Assembly (NCBI GenBank): GCA_034521595.1
Contig: JAXHMG010000003.1
Coordinates: forward strand, 2,976,001-3,040,000
Reading direction: 5' to 3'
DNA length: 64,000 bases
Source: Gemmatimonadota bacterium
GTDB lineage: Bacteria; Gemmatimonadota; Gemmatimonadetes; Longimicrobiales; Gaopeijiaceae
Part shown: positions 19,387 through 25,797 of the stretch, one piece after another
Numbering within the stretch: position 1 is the stretch's first letter
How the letters are laid out: every line of letters starts with the position of its first letter
Notes under the pieces: generated by a model
Told to the model about the DNA's origin: nothing
The model's database searches: none
What the model saw: the letters and a program-made list of their open reading frames with translations, nothing else
Program-made: the position numbers and the translations under genes

Positions 19387-19971
19387 CTACCGCCCCACCC
19401 CCGAGCCGAACACGATCTCGGCCTGGTCCCCCTCACCGATGCCCCGCTCTTCGAACCAGCCCTGGCGCACTTCGAGCGCGAACATCGCGGGCGCGTTGCT
19501 CGGATAGGTCTCGGTCACCATGGGCTCCATCTGCACGATGTCGACGATCCTGTAGGACGGGTCCATGTAGGCGATATCGAGAGGTACGTAGGTGTTGGCC
19601 ATCCAGAAGGCCCGGACGTCGTTGTTCTGGAACACGAAGAGCATGCCGGTGCCGTCCGGAACTTCCTCCCGGTACATGAGGCCCTCCGAGCGTTCTTCCT
19701 CGGTGGCGGCGATCTCGGCCACGACCGTGTCGGCTCCGAAGATCACCCAGGCGCGTCCCGCGGGCGGCCGGCCACCGGCCGCGGGCGTGTCCGGGGCGGC
19801 ATCCGTCCCGGTGGTGGCTTCGGGCTCGTCCGTCGCCACCCGCGCGCCGTCGTTGACGGCGCCGTCGTCAGGCGCGGGACACCCCAGGATGAACGCCAGA
19901 AGCCCGATAACAAGCACCGAATGGTGCGATCGGCGCCTTCGCCCTCGTGTGGACCACTTGCTTTGGGTCAT
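19387..19971 (-). CDS. DUF192 domain lipoprotein
   Basis: Motifs AEIA.T..ER..GLMYR, GMLFVF, FWM.NT..PLDIAY, ALEV..G. Lipobox ILGC. Confidence 0.85.
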   Translation of the reverse strand: MTQSKWSTRGRRRRSHHSVLVIGLLAFILGCPAPDDGAVNDGARVATDEPEATTGTDAAPDTPAAGGRPPAGRAWVIFGADTVVAEIAATEEERSEGLMYREEVPDGTGMLFVFQNNDVRAFWMANTYVPLDIAYMDPSYRIVDIVQMEPMVTETYPSNAPAMFALEVRQGWFEERGIGEGDQAEIVFGSGVGR

Positions 19972-20115
19972 GCTCACCCTCCCATTCGTGTACGGACGTG
20001 TGTAAGTTACGCCGCTTCGTGTCGGTTCCCAGGCCTTCGACTCGGGACCGTACGGTTGGACGAGGACGCGCCGCCGGACGGCTCGGGGTCGGAGATGGAG
20101 TTCGAGTACAGAACG

Positions 20116-20373
20116 ATGGTCGATCAGCAGCTCCTGGACATCCTCGTATGTCCCGAGACGAAGCAAGCCCTCCACATGGCGGACGCCGAGGTCCTCGAGC
20201 GTCTCAACGCGGCGATCCGTGAAGGGTCGGTAGCCGACCGCGGCGGCCGCAAGCTGGACGCGCCGGTGACCGAGGGGCTGATTCGCGAAGCCGGGGACGT
20301 GCTATATCCGATTCGGGACGACATCCCGATCATGCTCGTCGACCAAGCCATTCCACTACCTCAGAAGCCATGA
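20116..20373 (+). CDS. Trm112/YcaR-like protein
   Basis: Motifs LLDILVCPETK and YPIRDDIPIMLVD.A. Stop overlaps the cytochrome c start. Confidence 0.82.
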   Translation: MVDQQLLDILVCPETKQALHMADAEVLERLNAAIREGSVADRGGRKLDAPVTEGLIREAGDVLYPIRDDIPIMLVDQAIPLPQKP

Positions 20374-21011
20374 TGGGACGATTTCGCACCTTCCGCCTTT
20401 CGGCGCTCGCGGCCATGACAGGCGCCTTCGCCGCATGCGACGCCACGCCGCCGCCGGTGGGCATGGAACGGGGTGAGGAGCTCTACGAAACCTGCGTGCC
20501 GTGTCACGGAGAGATGGGTGACGGCAACGTCGACATCGCGGCTCCGACCATTGCCGGGCTCCCACAGTGGTACATCGAACAGCAACTCCTGAGCTTCCAG
20601 GAAGGCTGGCGCGGGGATCACCACGAGGATCTTCCCGGCCTCCGGATGCGGCCCATGGCGGTGTCCCTCACCCGGGACGGTGACATCGAGTCGGTCGCGG
20701 AGTACGTGGCGTCGCTGCCGGCGAACTACCCCGAGAGCACGCTCGACGGGAACGCCGGAGCGGGAGCCGAGCGGTACGAAGTGTGCGTAGCCTGTCACGG
20801 CGACGACGGCCGGGGCGATCAGTCGGTGATGTCGCCGCCCATCGTTCAGATGCACGACTGGTACATGCTGAATCAGATGCGCAACTTCAAGTCGGGCGCG
20901 CGCGGGGCCCACCCCGACGATACGTGGGGACAGACCATGCGCGTGAACACCGTGGCGCTCACGGAACAGGCGATGCGGGACGTGATCGCCTATGTGCAGA
21001 CGCTCAGGTAG
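20370..21011 (+). CDS. Diheme cytochrome c4-like lipoprotein
   Basis: Two CxxCH motifs (CVPCH, CVACH), P.IAG..WY..QL, lipobox FAAC. Confidence 0.87.
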   Translation: MMGRFRTFRLSALAAMTGAFAACDATPPPVGMERGEELYETCVPCHGEMGDGNVDIAAPTIAGLPQWYIEQQLLSFQEGWRGDHHEDLPGLRMRPMAVSLTRDGDIESVAEYVASLPANYPESTLDGNAGAGAERYEVCVACHGDDGRGDQSVMSPPIVQMHDWYMLNQMRNFKSGARGAHPDDTWGQTMRVNTVALTEQAMRDVIAYVQTLR

Positions 21012-21022
21012 CCGGAGACCCC

Positions 21023-21202
21023 ATGACCGACCATTCCATGCCCGAGACGGCTCCCAAGCTCACTCCCGAAGAGGAGGCGGCGTTCGCGCCGCCTTCGGAT
21101 GACGACAACCCGGCGATCGTGGACGCGAAGAAGGCGTTCGTGATCACGATCTGGAGCAGCCTGCTCTTCGTCGGGGTCGTCGTGGTGTTCGTCCTCCTGT
21201 GA
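21023..21202 (+). CDS. Small membrane protein (59 aa, C-terminal TM helix) in oxidase operon
   Basis: GGAG upstream of ATG 21023. Acidic N-terminus and hydrophobic C-terminus. Fills the gap between the cytochrome c and coxB genes. Confidence 0.6.
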   Translation: MTDHSMPETAPKLTPEEEAAFAPPSDDDNPAIVDAKKAFVITIWSSLLFVGVVVVFVLL

Positions 21203-21223: not shown

Positions 21224-21901
21224 ATGATCGAGCGTTTCGTAGTACAGGCTTCGACCTACGCCAGCAGCATCGACGGCATCATCATGCTCGTCTTCGTGCT
21301 CGTCGGCTTCTGGTTCCTGGTCGCGGAGGGGGTCTTCTTCTGGCTCATCTGGAAGTTTCGGGAGCGTCCGGGGCAGAAGTCCCAGTACCTGACCGGTAAG
21401 GAGAAGCACGTAAAGCGATGGGTGACGATCCCCCACGCGCTCGTCCTCGTCTGCGACGTCTTCATCATCATCGGATCGGTCCGGGTGTGGTACGACGTGA
21501 AGCAGCAACTCCCGGAAGCGGACTCGACCGTCCGCGTCATCGGCCAGCAATGGGCGTGGACCTTCCAACACCCGGGTCCGGACAACACGCTCGACACGAG
21601 CGACGACATCTTCACCGTCGGGGATCTGCACGTCGAGGTCGACAAGACGTACCACTTCCGGCTCGAGTCACGGGACGTGGTGCACTCGTTCTCCGTGCCC
21701 GTGTTCCGGCTCAAGCAGGACGCGGTGCCCGGACGTGCCATCACGGGTTGGTTCCGACCCACGGAGACCGGCGAGTACGACGTCCAGTGCGCGGAGATCT
21801 GCGGCATCGGCCACGGGGTGATGGCCGCGCGCATCCACATCCAAGACGAGAATCAACACGCCGAGTGGGTCGCGGAGAACTCCACCTCCGCGGAACAGTA
21901 G
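21224..21901 (+). CDS. coxB: Heme-copper oxidase subunit II (CuA)
   Basis: Two TM helices, GQQWAW, DVVHSF, CuA motif CAEICGIGHGVM. Confidence 0.92.
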   Translation: MIERFVVQASTYASSIDGIIMLVFVLVGFWFLVAEGVFFWLIWKFRERPGQKSQYLTGKEKHVKRWVTIPHALVLVCDVFIIIGSVRVWYDVKQQLPEADSTVRVIGQQWAWTFQHPGPDNTLDTSDDIFTVGDLHVEVDKTYHFRLESRDVVHSFSVPVFRLKQDAVPGRAITGWFRPTETGEYDVQCAEICGIGHGVMAARIHIQDENQHAEWVAENSTSAEQ

Positions 21902-21915
21902 GCTAGGGGAAGCAG

Positions 21916-23631
21916 ATGGCTGACACCGCTGTCACGATCGAACAGGAACAGCACGAAGCCGGGGAGCACCACGGGCCCAGCGGCATCCTGAAGTACATCT
22001 GGTCCACGGACCACAAGATCATCGGGATGCAGTACATGTTCACGGGCATGTTCATGGCCGTGATCGGCGGCTTCATGGCGTACGTGTTCCGCATGCAGCT
22101 CGCCTTTCCCGGCATCGAGGTGCCGGGCTTCGGGCAGGTCTCACCCGGCGAGTACAACGCGCTGATCACGAACCACGGCTCGATCATGATCTTCTGGGTG
22201 GCGATGCCCGTGCTCATCGCCGCCTTCGGGAATTTCTTGATTCCGCTCATGATCGGCGCGGACGACATGGTGTTCCCGCGCATCAACCGCCTGTCGTATC
22301 AGATCTTCCTGTTGAGCGCGCTGATCTTGCTCGCCTCTCTGTTCGTGGAGGGCGGCGGCTTTGGCGGCGCGTGGACGGCGTACCCGCCGCTCTCGGCGTC
22401 GGGCGACTTCAATCAGACCAACATCGGGGCCACGATGTGGCTCATCGCGGTGGCGTTGGAGTTCGTCGCCTTCCTCCTCGGCGGCATCAACTTCATCGTC
22501 ACACTGATGAACTCGCGAGCGCCCGGGATGAAGGCTTACGACATCCCGCTCACGGCGTGGATGATCGTCGTCGCCAGCGTGCTCTTCATGCTCTCGGTCG
22601 GTCCCCTCATGGCCGGCGCGGTCATGCTCCTGTTCGACCAGACCATCGGCACCGGCTTCTTCGATCCCGCACGGGGCGGGGATCCGATTCTCTGGCAGCA
22701 CCTCTTCTGGTTCTTCGGGCACCCCGAGGTCTACGTGGTGCTCCTGCCGGCCATCGGCTTCGTGATCGACATCACCGCGACCTTCGCCCGGAAGAAGGTC
22801 TTCGGCTACAAGATCATGCTGTACACCGCGGTCGCGACGGCCGTGCTGAGCTTCTTCGTCTGGGCCCACCACCAGTTCGTGGCGGGCATCGACCCCCGCA
22901 TGGGGAACGTCTTCACCATCACGACCCTACTCATCTCCGTGCCCGTCGCGGAGCTGTTGTTCGTGATGATCGCGACACTCTACGGAGGCTCGATCAGGCT
23001 CACGGTGCCCATGCTCTGGGCGCTCGGCTTCATCGCCACGTTCCTCCTGGGCGGCGTGACCGGAATCTTCCTGGGCGCGAGTAGCGCGGACATCTACTTC
23101 CACGACACCTACTTCGTGTTGGCGCACTTCCACTACACGTTCTTCCCGATCGCCATCATCGGGACGTTCGCGGCGTTCACGTACTGGTTCCCGAAGATGT
23201 TCGGGAAGATGCTCGACGAGCGGATCGGCAAGATCCATTTCTGGGGCACCATCATCCCCTTCAACTTCATCTTCATCCCGCTCTTCATGTTGGGCGGGAT
23301 CGGCCAGCATCGCCGCATCTACAACTACCAGCACTTCCCCGACCTGGCCGAGCCGTACATGTACGCGCTTCGCCAGATCGCGACGATCTCGCTGGTGATC
23401 ATGCTCCTCTTCCAGGCATTCTTCTTCTACAACGTGATCAAGTCCTGGATCTCGGGTGAGAAGGCCGGAAAGAATCCGTGGAAGGCGAACACGCTCGAGT
23501 GGACGGCTCCCTCTCCGCCGCCGCACGGCAACTGGCCGCCGGAAGCGCTGCCCAAGGTCTACCGGGGCCCGTACGAGTACGGCCATCCGGATCGCGAAGA
23601 AGACTACTGGCCCCAGAACGAACCAGCCTGA
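21916..23631 (+). CDS. coxA: Heme-copper oxidase subunit I, A1-like, with atypical helix VIII
   Basis: Motifs STDHK.IG, HG, DMVFPRIN, WFFGHPEVY, WAHH, HDTY..AHFHY, RR. Confidence 0.93.
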   Translation: MADTAVTIEQEQHEAGEHHGPSGILKYIWSTDHKIIGMQYMFTGMFMAVIGGFMAYVFRMQLAFPGIEVPGFGQVSPGEYNALITNHGSIMIFWVAMPVLIAAFGNFLIPLMIGADDMVFPRINRLSYQIFLLSALILLASLFVEGGGFGGAWTAYPPLSASGDFNQTNIGATMWLIAVALEFVAFLLGGINFIVTLMNSRAPGMKAYDIPLTAWMIVVASVLFMLSVGPLMAGAVMLLFDQTIGTGFFDPARGGDPILWQHLFWFFGHPEVYVVLLPAIGFVIDITATFARKKVFGYKIMLYTAVATAVLSFFVWAHHQFVAGIDPRMGNVFTITTLLISVPVAELLFVMIATLYGGSIRLTVPMLWALGFIATFLLGGVTGIFLGASSADIYFHDTYFVLAHFHYTFFPIAIIGTFAAFTYWFPKMFGKMLDERIGKIHFWGTIIPFNFIFIPLFMLGGIGQHRRIYNYQHFPDLAEPYMYALRQIATISLVIMLLFQAFFFYNVIKSWISGEKAGKNPWKANTLEWTAPSPPPHGNWPPEALPKVYRGPYEYGHPDREEDYWPQNEPA

Positions 23632-24209
23632 TGTCACACGCCAAGCCTATCGCCACGCTTCGTTCCGCCACGGGCATCCCCACCGGGCGCCTTGCGGTCT
23701 GGTGGGTCCTCGCCTCCGAAGTCGTTATCTTCGGAGGGCTCCTCGGAGCCTACCTGATGCACCGACTCGGGCATCCGGAGTGGGCGGACGCCGCTTCCCA
23801 CACCAACACCATGATTGGCACGATCAACACCTTCGTGCTGCTCACGTCCAGCTTCACCGCGGTCCTCGCGCACCAAGCCGCAGAGCGCGGCGACGGGAAG
23901 AAGGCTGCGAAGTTCCTGCTCCTCACCATCGGCGGCGCGCTCACTTTCGTGGCTGTAAAGAGCTACGAGTGGTGGTACGAGATCAGCAACGGGTACACGA
24001 TCACCGCCAACACCTTCTGGTCGTTCTACTACACGGTGGCGGGCCTGCACGCGCTGCACGTCATCGCCGGCGCTATCATCATGGGCGTGGTGGCGTTGGA
24101 TGCGTTTCGCGGCCGTGAGCTCCAGAGGGTCGAGCTCATCGGTATCTACTGGCACTTCGTCGACGTGGTCTGGATCTTCCTGTTCCCATTGCTCTACATC
24201 GCGAAGTAG
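23631..24209 (+). CDS. coxC: Heme-copper oxidase subunit III (short form)
   Basis: Motifs LASEVVIFGG, NTFVLLTSS, FYY..GLHALHV, YWHFVDVVW. Confidence 0.88.
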   Translation: MSHAKPIATLRSATGIPTGRLAVWWVLASEVVIFGGLLGAYLMHRLGHPEWADAASHTNTMIGTINTFVLLTSSFTAVLAHQAAERGDGKKAAKFLLLTIGGALTFVAVKSYEWWYEISNGYTITANTFWSFYYTVAGLHALHVIAGAIIMGVVALDAFRGRELQRVELIGIYWHFVDVVWIFLFPLLYIAK

Positions 24210-24230: not shown

Positions 24231-24899
24231 ATGTCCGAACATCACGATGTGAACTACAAGAAGATCTACTTCACGCTGCTCGGCTTGCTGGTCGTGAGCG
24301 TGATCGGCCCGGAGTTCGGAATTCTCTGGGTCACCCTCGTGACGGCGTTCGGCGTGGCGATCGTCAAGGCGTACCTCGTCATCGAAAACTTCATGCATCT
24401 TCGGTGGGAGAAGAAGCTCATGAAGTGGATGCTGACGTCGTCCCTGGCGGTCATGGCCCTCATGTTCGTTGGCATCTCGCCCGACGTGATGAAGCACGAA
24501 GGGCGGAATTGGGTGAACGAGGCCGCGATCGCGGCGGTGGACAGGGGCATCGGAGGCGCGGCCGAAGAGGAGCCGACGGCCGTCGCCGAGGCCGAAGCCG
24601 AGCCCGGAGAGTTCAGCGCCGCTTCGACGTTCAACCAGGCGTGCGCCGCGTGCCACGGACAGGCAGGCGACGGGAACGGACCGGCGGGCGCCTCGCTCGA
24701 TCCCGCTCCCGCCGACTTCACGGATCCCGAGTTCTGGGCGGCGGAGGACCGCGACGAGGAGCGCATCCTCACGGTCATCCGTGACGGAGCCGCAGCCGTA
24801 GGGGGCTCGCCGCTCATGGTGGCATGGGGCAACAGCTACAACGAAGAGCAACTCCAGGCCCTCACCGACTACGTGATGGAGTTCCAGCCGGAGCAGTGA
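24231..24899 (+). CDS. Oxidase subunit IV-like domain fused to monoheme cytochrome c
   Basis: N-terminal 3-TM region with KA.LV..FMHL.WE, acidic linker, then CAACHG..G.GP and M.AW. Confidence 0.8.
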   Translation: MSEHHDVNYKKIYFTLLGLLVVSVIGPEFGILWVTLVTAFGVAIVKAYLVIENFMHLRWEKKLMKWMLTSSLAVMALMFVGISPDVMKHEGRNWVNEAAIAAVDRGIGGAAEEEPTAVAEAEAEPGEFSAASTFNQACAACHGQAGDGNGPAGASLDPAPADFTDPEFWAAEDRDEERILTVIRDGAAAVGGSPLMVAWGNSYNEEQLQALTDYVMEFQPEQ

Positions 24900-24952: not shown

Positions 24953-25555
24953 ATGTCCGCACAGAGCGCCACCGCCGAATTCGATCGACGTCCGGAGCCG
25001 GTTCGAAGGGAGAAGGCCGTTTCCAACGGCGTGCTCGGGATGATCATGTTCATCTTCACCGAGGTCATGTTCTTCTCCGGGCTCATCTCGGCGCACACGA
25101 TCGTGCGCTCCCAGTCGGCCGGACAGATGTGGCCACCGTTCGGTCAGCCGCGGCTCCCGGTCGAGGAGACGGCCGTGAATACGGCCGCGCTCATGGCGAG
25201 CGGCCTCGTGCTCGTGCTTACCTGGCTCGCGTTCCGGCGGGACCCACAGCGGGCGCGCATACCGCTCCTCCTCGCGATCGGTCTGGGTGCCTTTTTCGTG
25301 CTCTTTCAGGGAGCCGAGTGGGTCGCGTTGCTCGGTGAAGGGCTCACCATAAGGTCGAGCACGTACGGCGCCTTTTTCTACCTGATCGTCGGGGCGCACG
25401 GCCTGCACGCGGTGGGGGCGCTCCTCGCCCTGGGCTGGACGTGGACGAGGCTCGACCGCGGCCGGCTTACCGCCGAGCAACTCGCCACCGTGTCCGCGTT
25501 CTGGTATTTTGTAGTACTGGTGTGGCCCGTGTTGTACTGGAGAGTATATCTATGA
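24953..25555 (+). CDS. Second heme-copper oxidase subunit III-like protein
   Basis: RBS GAGGAG. Motifs LGM..FIFTEVMFF.G, NTA.L.ASG, FFY..G.HGLH, WYFVVLVW. Confidence 0.83.
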   Translation: MSAQSATAEFDRRPEPVRREKAVSNGVLGMIMFIFTEVMFFSGLISAHTIVRSQSAGQMWPPFGQPRLPVEETAVNTAALMASGLVLVLTWLAFRRDPQRARIPLLLAIGLGAFFVLFQGAEWVALLGEGLTIRSSTYGAFFYLIVGAHGLHAVGALLALGWTWTRLDRGRLTAEQLATVSAFWYFVVLVWPVLYWRVYL

Positions 25556-25797
25556 GCAAGCTGACACCGATCTTCGCGCTCGCGCTCCTGCTTCTGGCGA
25601 TCTGGCCGGACGTGGCGCAGGCCTGTGCGGTCTGCTTCGACGCCACGGATGAAAACCGTCAGGCCTTCCTGGGCACGACGATCTTCCTGTCGCTCTTCCC
25701 GCTCGGCATGGTGGCGGGCGCCGGGCTCTGGGTGCGGAAGCGGTCGCAGGAGCTTAACGGGGAGGACGGGACCGTCTTCCGCGAGGACGCGGAGTAG
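25552..25797 (+). CDS. Small exported CxxC membrane protein (81 aa)
   Basis: ATGA overlap. Signal peptide ending AQA, then CAVCF and one TM helix. Confidence 0.65.
   Translation: MSKLTPIFALALLLLAIWPDVAQACAVCFDATDENRQAFLGTTIFLSLFPLGMVAGAGLWVRKRSQELNGEDGTVFREDAE

Follow-up and report, generated by a model that had tools for sequence, protein, structure and literature searches.

The lysine at position 362 (R. sphaeroides numbering) is the textbook requirement for reduction of the active site in A-type oxidases, the mitochondrial enzyme family included. Here we analyse CoxA, subunit I of an A-family heme-copper oxidase that lacks this lysine, encoded at 21916..23631 in a 64,000-nucleotide stretch of a Gemmatimonadota genome (hereafter the window, G000:C3:2976001-3040000; the genome, G000, measures 3.49 Mb in 3 contigs and is 93% complete). 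A-family oxidases without the K-channel lysine are already known. K-less A1 enzymes from Elusimicrobia, Calescamantes HR19, Methylacidiphilum, Halobacteriovorax and Bacteriovorax are tabulated in Table_3 of PMC8239418 (Degli Esposti et al. 2021), where the first three constitute a 'KC channel' group and Oligoflexia are listed besides. As far as the excerpts of a 2020 preprint by Degli Esposti go (10.1101/2020.03.01.968255), acidophilic iron oxidisers and their relatives have a COX1 without the lysine and without the COX2 glutamate, and Gemmatimonadetes metagenome-assembled genomes (MAGs) with related clusters and duplicated COX3 are mentioned. The excerpted text of a 2026 preprint reports a K-less COX in Ferrigenium straubiae and calls its significance unclear. 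The K analogues of the B-family (ba3) and C-family (cbb3) are also lysine-free, being built from Ser, Thr, Tyr, His (and Glu). Among these systems, the residue pattern of the clade to which CoxA belongs appears to be a new variant.

We propose that in this clade the lysine-based K pathway may have given way to a newly built path that brings protons to the active site without a lysine, a reading whose chances of being right we consider about even. The features concerned are the following.

21224..21901, + strand: CoxB, subunit II, 225 aa (PF00116; alignment to 1M56_B)
21434-21436, + strand: codon of CoxB His71, in the second transmembrane helix (TM2)
21455-21457, + strand: codon of CoxB Asp78, TM2
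21916..23631, + strand: CoxA, subunit I, 571 aa, A1-type heme-copper O2 reductase (PF00115, 445 bits)
22459..22461, + strand: codon of Glu182, helix IV, at the R. sphaeroides S197 position (alignment to 1M56_A)
22825..22851, + strand: Thr304/Thr308/Ser312 hydroxyl stripe, helix VII (column counts in the clade versus K-containing proteins)
22924..22968, + strand: helix VIII segment T337-M351 (alignment to 1M56_A)
22951-22953, + strand: codon of E346 (GAG), helix VIII

Judged by its sequence, CoxA is clearly an A1-type A-family heme-copper oxidase. Canonical aa3 enzymes (R. sphaeroides 1M56, P. denitrificans 1AR1) have the same fold (TM-score 0.90-0.92) and ~39% identity, and an AF2 model of CoxA (pLDDT 89.6, pTM 0.90) matches 3OM3_A and 1M56_A with a TM-score of 0.91 and an rmsd of 1.8-2.1 Å. 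Both subunits score below the cut-offs of their NCBIfam models, CoxA with 586.3 against 670.75 for CtaD_CoxA (TIGR02891) and CoxB with 143.9 against 147.7 for CoxB (TIGR02866). In order to compare the channels residue by residue, CoxA was aligned by HMMER to 1M56_A (E 9e-122), with no gaps from helix VI to helix VIII; positions were counted along the printed 1M56_A chain, and the literature numbering was reproduced (S299, H333/H334, T359, K362). In this alignment K362 is replaced by L347, T359 by V344, S365 by V350 and S299 by I284, while I361 becomes E346, H300 becomes D285 and W366 becomes M351. The initial annotation, made from the window's letters, had listed T359 to Val, K362 to Leu, S365 to Val, I361 to Glu and S299 to Ile, and all five are recovered. 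The entry glutamate at the start of TM2 in 1M56_B, which we take to be E101 of R. sphaeroides, aligns with V63 of CoxB, and Glu is found there in none of 120 close homologs (the best 120 of 8000 scored, 80-100% identical); its predicted absence from subunit II was thus borne out. The stronger claim that the entire K channel is gone stands for every canonical side chain, now hydrophobic, but not for the cross-link tyrosine, which remains.

The rest of the catalytic machinery resembles the canonical enzymes in all metal ligands, the GHPEVY motif, the D-channel Asp and Asn positions, the arginine pair and the CuA site of subunit II. In a 59-sequence alignment the histidines H87, H269, H318, H319, H404 and H406 and N192 are invariant, D117, N106, N124, R466 and R467 are nearly so, and Y273, the cross-link Tyr, is intact together with the three CuB His. 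GHPEVY (residues 268-273) occurs in 120/120 close homologs, and the CuA ligand positions of CoxB (H154, C189, E191, C193, H197, M200) are likewise kept in all 120. The six His ligands, the motif and the RR pair, noted as intact at the outset, are therefore invariant or nearly so. The D channel had also been called intact; this holds for its Asp and Asn positions but not for helix IV, where S197 is replaced by E182, G198 by F183, S200 by A185 and S201 by F186, all four in 120/120 close homologs. Position 182 is S, A, L or V in K-containing proteins. In sum, the differences from canonical aa3 are hydrophobic residues in place of K362, T359, S299, S365, W366 and the subunit II E101; Glu, Ala and Phe in place of S197, S200 and S201; a Thr in place of the invariant I323; and a new His and Asp in TM2 of subunit II.

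This inventory bears on the initial suggestion that the substrate had changed to NO or peroxide, with membrane Glu residues acting as they do in NO reductases. Two new membrane glutamates, E182 and E346, speak for it, and a conserved Glu in the K-channel region of sNOR is described in the excerpts of PMC11214002. The same excerpts state, however, that NO reductases of the superfamily (cNOR, qNOR and newer families) lack the cross-link tyrosine and have a changed active site, for example FeB with a Glu ligand, and that O2 reduction requires the tyrosine. CoxA has kept both the His-Tyr cross-link motif and every CuB ligand. Taken with the genome content described below, a switch of substrate is very improbable.

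The positions that lost their canonical side chains are uniformly hydrophobic across the clade, and new polar residues are conserved close by. For this survey the 120 close homologs were combined with 17 more distant loci to give a set of 137, from which we excluded L017 (I346), L020 (cut off; it has the Glu too) and L039 (broken frame). Position 347 is L or M and position 344 is I, V or L in all 137, position 350 is V, L or I in 135/137, and position 284 is I, V or A in 120/120 close homologs. E346, T304, S312 and S341 are each present in 137/137 and T308 in 136/137. In K-containing proteins, position 304 is A or S, position 308 is Ile (134/135) and position 312 is Gly (107/135). In CoxB, H71 and D78 are each found in 120/120 close homologs and in 20/20 clade loci, and in none of six K-containing outgroups; D78 is also present in both loci of the sister group introduced below. 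Four residues just past the H71/D78 stretch are missing in all eight non-clade CoxB proteins, that is, the six outgroups and both sisters. The view of CoxA as a member of an unusual clade is supported by the invariance of E346 and by the conserved polar residues near the old channel; these residues, together with the hydrophobic K-channel side chains, also make the suspected change in proton delivery probable.

The new residues are arranged with regularity. T304, T308 and S312 stand at i, i+4 and i+8 on helix VII, being 14, 10 and 6 residues before the CuB ligand H318, and His71 and Asp78 are seven residues apart on CoxB TM2, thus on one helix face. The former channel face of helix VIII (344, 347, 350, 351) is wholly hydrophobic in the clade; Glu346 would lie ~100 degrees to one side of it and Ser341 ~120 degrees to the other. 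Counting 1.5 Å per residue, T304, E346 and H71, the last of these 8 residues past V63, would sit near the depth of K362, and T308, S341 and D78 one to two turns above it. In the excerpted text of PMC6115622 the K channel is surrounded by helices VIII, IX and X of subunit I and by helix II of subunit II; since that helix borders the channel, a role for residues of subunit II TM2 is plausible.

We also searched for a lysine that might compensate for the loss. No Lys stands at the K362 position or near it, either in the alignment or among the residues that at least 90% of clade members share and that K-containing proteins seldom have. Basic residues new to the clade are limited to R125, K294 and R328, which to judge from their positions probably lie in loops or at helix ends. 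Another acidic residue, Glu35 of CoxB (21326-21328), lies in TM1 about nine residues from the cytoplasmic end; it occurs in 120/120 close homologs, in 13/20 clade loci and also in some K-containing outgroups, and is therefore not specific to the loss of the lysine.

According to the mechanism that we propose, an ancestor of the lineage would have lost the lysine-based K pathway and a lysine-free path would have taken over. Glu346, Ser341, Thr304/Thr308/Ser312 and, from subunit II, His71 and Asp78, together with bound water, would lead the chemical protons in from the cytoplasmic side as far as Tyr273 and the heme a3-CuB site, along both flanks of the old lumen. Two seams would be used, one between helices VII and VIII (T304, E346, T308, S312) and one between subunits I and II (H71, D78, S341), with Glu346 and His71 serving as an ionisable relay at about the depth of K362. 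In the D channel, the entry residues (D117 and the Asn positions) and E271 are still in place, the serines are replaced and E182 sits near the top; proton pumping may differ as well. Glu346 is apparently the youngest element of the path and not its sole requirement, because close relatives manage without it.

Set against the described systems, CoxA agrees with the K-less A1 enzymes of PMC8239418 in that its Lys position holds a non-ionisable residue and its subunit II lacks the Glu. The clade pattern over the four subunit I columns of Table_3 (I/V/A, L/M, I/V, V) matches none of its rows, and position 361 is not among its columns, which leaves the Glu unrecorded. By our own count, the helix VII positions of the C-family channel, protonatable in the 'KC channel' group, correspond in CoxA to G297, M301, T304 and S312, two of these four being hydroxyl residues. 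The CoxA of the Acidithiobacillus rus operon and related 'modified K-channel' oxidases are reported to be, like the present protein, K-less A-family members without subunit II Glu; they are listed in Table_3 as A2 with T at the T351 column, whereas CoxA here is A1 with I or V. As in the clusters of Gemmatimonadetes MAGs mentioned in the excerpts of the 2020 preprint, the window operon has two COX3 genes. In principle, the proposed path is comparable to the lysine-free channels of the B and C families, and H247 of V. cholerae, which by the column headings of Table_3 is a helix VII residue of the C-family channel and stands 14 positions before the CuB His, aligns by our count with T304. Unlike in the C family, the hydroxyl stripe stands at -14, -10 and -6 from H318 and not at -21, -17 and -14; unlike in either family, the D-channel entry and the helix VI Glu are retained and the sequence is clearly A-family. 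Glu346, the helix VII threonines and the subunit II His/Asp found no mention in the literature that we searched, outside which lay the supplementary MAG list of the 2020 preprint, which may include the clade.

In order to place the clade, we ran the phylogeny called for in the initial annotation. Among clusters formed at 50% identity there is a gap, with one representative at 80% and the full-length neighbours after it at 46% or less. A scan of one genome per species recovered the same protein at 70-84% identity in several phyla, the hosts being Gemmatimonadota, Myxococcota (Polyangiales, Archangiaceae), Bradymonadia, Bdellovibrionaceae, Eisenbacteria and a Puniceicoccaceae isolate. In the FastTree tree (LG+gamma, 181 sequences, 520 columns, midpoint-rooted, rows with more than 12% gaps dropped) the clade is monophyletic (support 0.98-0.99). 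P0263 branches beside it, with an aberrant helix VI motif in which Asn replaces the CuB His; then come the K-less sisters L022 and L023 (51% identity, support 1.0), of which L023 is a Calescibacterium MAG whose pattern nearly equals the HR19 row of Table_3 in PMC8239418. The next group out holds 33 proteins, 31 of them with Lys (support only 0.64). With midpoint rooting, the loss of Lys is derived.

The changes appear to have come in two steps. In the first, Lys, Thr, Ser and the subunit II Glu would have been lost and Asp78(II), Ser341, Ser312 and an acid at 182 gained, a state common to the clade and to L022/L023, which carry D/E at 182. In the second, Glu346, Thr304, Thr308 and His71(II) appear to have been gained in the clade only; H71(II) and T304/T308 are absent from both sisters. 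L017 (Puniceicoccaceae bacterium K14), nested in the clade, has I346 with S304 and L308, and retains E182, S312, S341, H71 and D78. Some matches are damaged or doubtful. The MAG that holds L007 (CAMASI010000044.1), a locus with a 70% identical CoxA and the full operon, bears the label Klebsiella pneumoniae, in all likelihood through faulty binning or labelling. The clade-type coxA of L039 is matched only piecewise (72%, 54% and 71% identity), and the helix VIII region of P0195 reads out of frame, the cause being frameshifts or errors of assembly.

We then looked at the wider family, where 144 of the best 150 cluster representatives cover the sites concerned. The helix VIII Lys is present in 92 of them and absent from 52, and the sites vary with it as follows.

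Position 308, Ile: 92/92 with Lys; 16/52 without Lys (Thr in 19)
Position 312, Ser: 16/92 with Lys; 39/52 without Lys
Position 341, Ser or Thr: 1/92 with Lys; 29/52 without Lys

The loss of K362 is thus real, but less singular than the initial annotation implied, given the 52 K-less representatives and the examples in print; that it is rare can be rejected. Across several lineages of the A family it is accompanied by hydroxyl gains at these three sites, an association that we did not find stated in the literature searched. The K-less proteins span distinct helix VIII types (Q, L, I, M, V, or acids at other positions). Gln takes the Lys position in 17 of the 52, and further helix VIII acids occur two residues after the Pro, at the Lys position itself (P0244) or ~nine residues earlier. 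A strict pairing of E346 with T308 was considered and rejected on account of the fragment P0121, which has T308 with V346.

Several of these observations weigh against a lysine-free path running through Glu346. Lys and Glu are both missing in L017 (I346), L022 (V), L023 (M) and the fragments P0121 (V) and P0160 (I), and with T308 beside V346 in P0121 the coupling between 308 and 346 is not strict. A carboxylate is also opposite in charge to the Lys whose part it would take. The facing of E346, H71 and D78 comes from helix periodicity and covariation only, and the covariation counts run over related sequences and overstate their independence. Finally, E/D182 arose together with the loss of Lys and is also found in the unrelated K-less proteins P0244 and P0268; with this timing and occurrence, a takeover by the D channel fits equally well.

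In such a takeover there would be no replacement K path: a remodelled D channel would take all protons, Glu182 beside E271 providing an extra branch, and Glu346, His71 and Asp78 would be structural or redox-tuning. The acid at 182 appears at the node of Lys loss and is common to L022/L023, which lack E346 and H71; among the representatives, E182 is confined to K-less proteins (4/52 versus 0/92); L017 lives without E346; and D117, N106, N124, N192 and E271 are conserved. P0244 and P0268 have, besides lacking Lys, no helix VI Glu (an A2-like motif) and a Glu at the helix IV site equivalent to E182, which suggests that this site can host a D-channel Glu in some lineages. On the other side stand the changes of S200 and S201 to Ala and Phe, which should remove upper D-channel water ligands and not improve the channel. 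The takeover also leaves unexplained the seven new polar residues at the old K lumen, which are 99-100% conserved. To our knowledge, moreover, the D channel cannot substitute in a K362 mutant of the model A-type enzymes. We regard the D-channel takeover as the main rival to the lysine-free path, though as somewhat unlikely.

The genomes speak to the substrate and to the role of the enzyme. In G000 a profile search found only two PF00115 matches, this CoxA and NorB, and a genome search found no cytochrome bd; a heme A synthase and one COX2 gene are present. A second canonical oxidase, which the initial annotation had proposed to look for, was thus not found in this 93% complete genome. The cNOR cluster (L002, G000:C3:1630644-1634870) lies ~1.37 Mb from the window. 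Its NorB scores 382 bits to 3O0R_B (P. aeruginosa NorB), and its genes can be read as norC, norB, norQ and norD, norQ from weak AAA-ATPase matches and norD from gene order alone. With a length of 271 aa, the norC-like protein of this cluster gives matches to heme-binding domains of two kinds. Gemmatimonadota were sampled with 151 genomes, two of them unpublished (G053, G093) and counted only among those without the clade CoxA. Besides G000, 9 of the sampled genomes carry the clade protein, at 76-83% identity, and they all belong to the same family. Each has a single match at E <=1e-10, thus no second A-type paralog. The clade CoxA is the only PF00115 match in G060, G067, G076 and G126 (1-2 contigs, 98-99% complete), and G113 (96% complete, CoxA 83% identical) also has a single PF00115 match. 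Cytochrome bd was not found in G113, G129, G126 or G060; G165 has one. As the sole terminal oxidase found in several complete genomes, the enzyme is most simply understood as a respiratory O2 reductase, oxygen respiration being assumed. The NO or peroxide substrate of the initial annotation therefore fares badly: the O2-reductase site is complete, the genome already has norC, norB, a norQ-like ATPase gene and a putative norD in a separate cluster, and in four relatives CoxA is the sole PF00115 gene. Most likely the enzyme is an O2 reductase and not an NO reductase. The RNA run X1 (share 0.08) gave only ~100-nt contigs, mostly 90-95% alike and on conserved stretches; they are not organism-specific and are no evidence on expression either way.

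The same data bear on the idea of a low-efficiency O2 scavenger with little or no pumping, for which slow proton delivery would be tolerated in detoxification or micro-oxic respiration. Both canonical pathways are altered, and the cNOR of G000 suggests a denitrifying or low-oxygen lifestyle. Against this, CoxA is the only PF00115 match in the four closed or nearly closed genomes, two of which (G060, G126) are also without bd, and is there probably the main respiratory oxidase; E271 and the D-channel entry, needed for pumping, are invariant or nearly so; and the seven-gene operon is kept across phyla. A scavenging role is improbable.

The coxA gene belongs to an operon of seven or eight + strand genes, in which the following flank or follow coxB and coxA.

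20370..21011, + strand: diheme c-type cytochrome (c4-like), first gene of the operon (PF00034 matched in two stretches)
21023..21202, + strand: small 59-aa open reading frame (ORF) between the cytochrome c gene and coxB (translation)
23631..24209, + strand: COX3a, subunit III (PF00510)
24231..24899, + strand: subunit IV fused to a C-terminal cytochrome c domain (PF03626 and PF13442/PF00034; TIGR02229)
24953..25555, + strand: COX3b, second subunit III-like gene, start uncertain (PF00510)
25552..25797, + strand: 81-aa membrane protein with a signal-like N-terminus, CxxC and one TM helix, its start overlapping the end of COX3b

The 15 loci with the whole set keep the order cytochrome c, coxB, coxA, COX3a, COX4, COX3b; L018 and L020 are cut off inside the operon and carry part of the set. 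A c-type cytochrome gene lies upstream of coxB in 18/18 clade loci with that flank (L003-L019, L021), and the diheme cytochrome is likely the electron donor to the oxidase. The 59-aa ORF has an acidic N-terminal part and one C-terminal hydrophobic helix, and its product may be a small subunit. CoxB has its CuA site and no fused cytochrome c. The ATG of COX3a overlaps the coxA stop codon and the gene is kept in the clade loci, as is COX3b in all that extend so far. Full-length tblastn coverage of the subunit IV-cytochrome c fusion is found only in the Gemmatimonadota loci L003 and L004; elsewhere mostly the first ~90-130 residues are covered (up to ~165 in L011), and the fusion may be lineage-specific. 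The 81-aa protein, without match in Pfam or NCBIfam, is the last operon gene in 12 clade loci (tblastn), with the CxxC aligned in 11 of the 12; it may act in copper handling or assembly, or as an additional subunit. Divergent and upstream of the operon, a DUF192 protein gene (19387-20175, - strand) has the same place in L003 and L004 and is not found there in the other phyla.

Returning to the lysine-free path, we put forward more tentatively that the clade would constitute a distinct A-type subfamily with a third solution to proton delivery, in which a His/Asp pair on TM2 of subunit II acts in trans with a Glu/Thr/Ser ladder on helices VII and VIII, while a second Glu atop a serine-poor D channel reshapes pumping. 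The residues that changed with the loss of Lys are few (E346, T304, T308, S312, S341 and E182 in CoxA; H71 and D78 in CoxB), and so sharply defined a set makes it testable what an A-type oxidase needs instead of the Lys. If the proposal is true, the clade would prove, by a natural example, that the A-type scaffold can do without the 'essential' Lys, and would offer a ready-made substitution set for the model enzymes.

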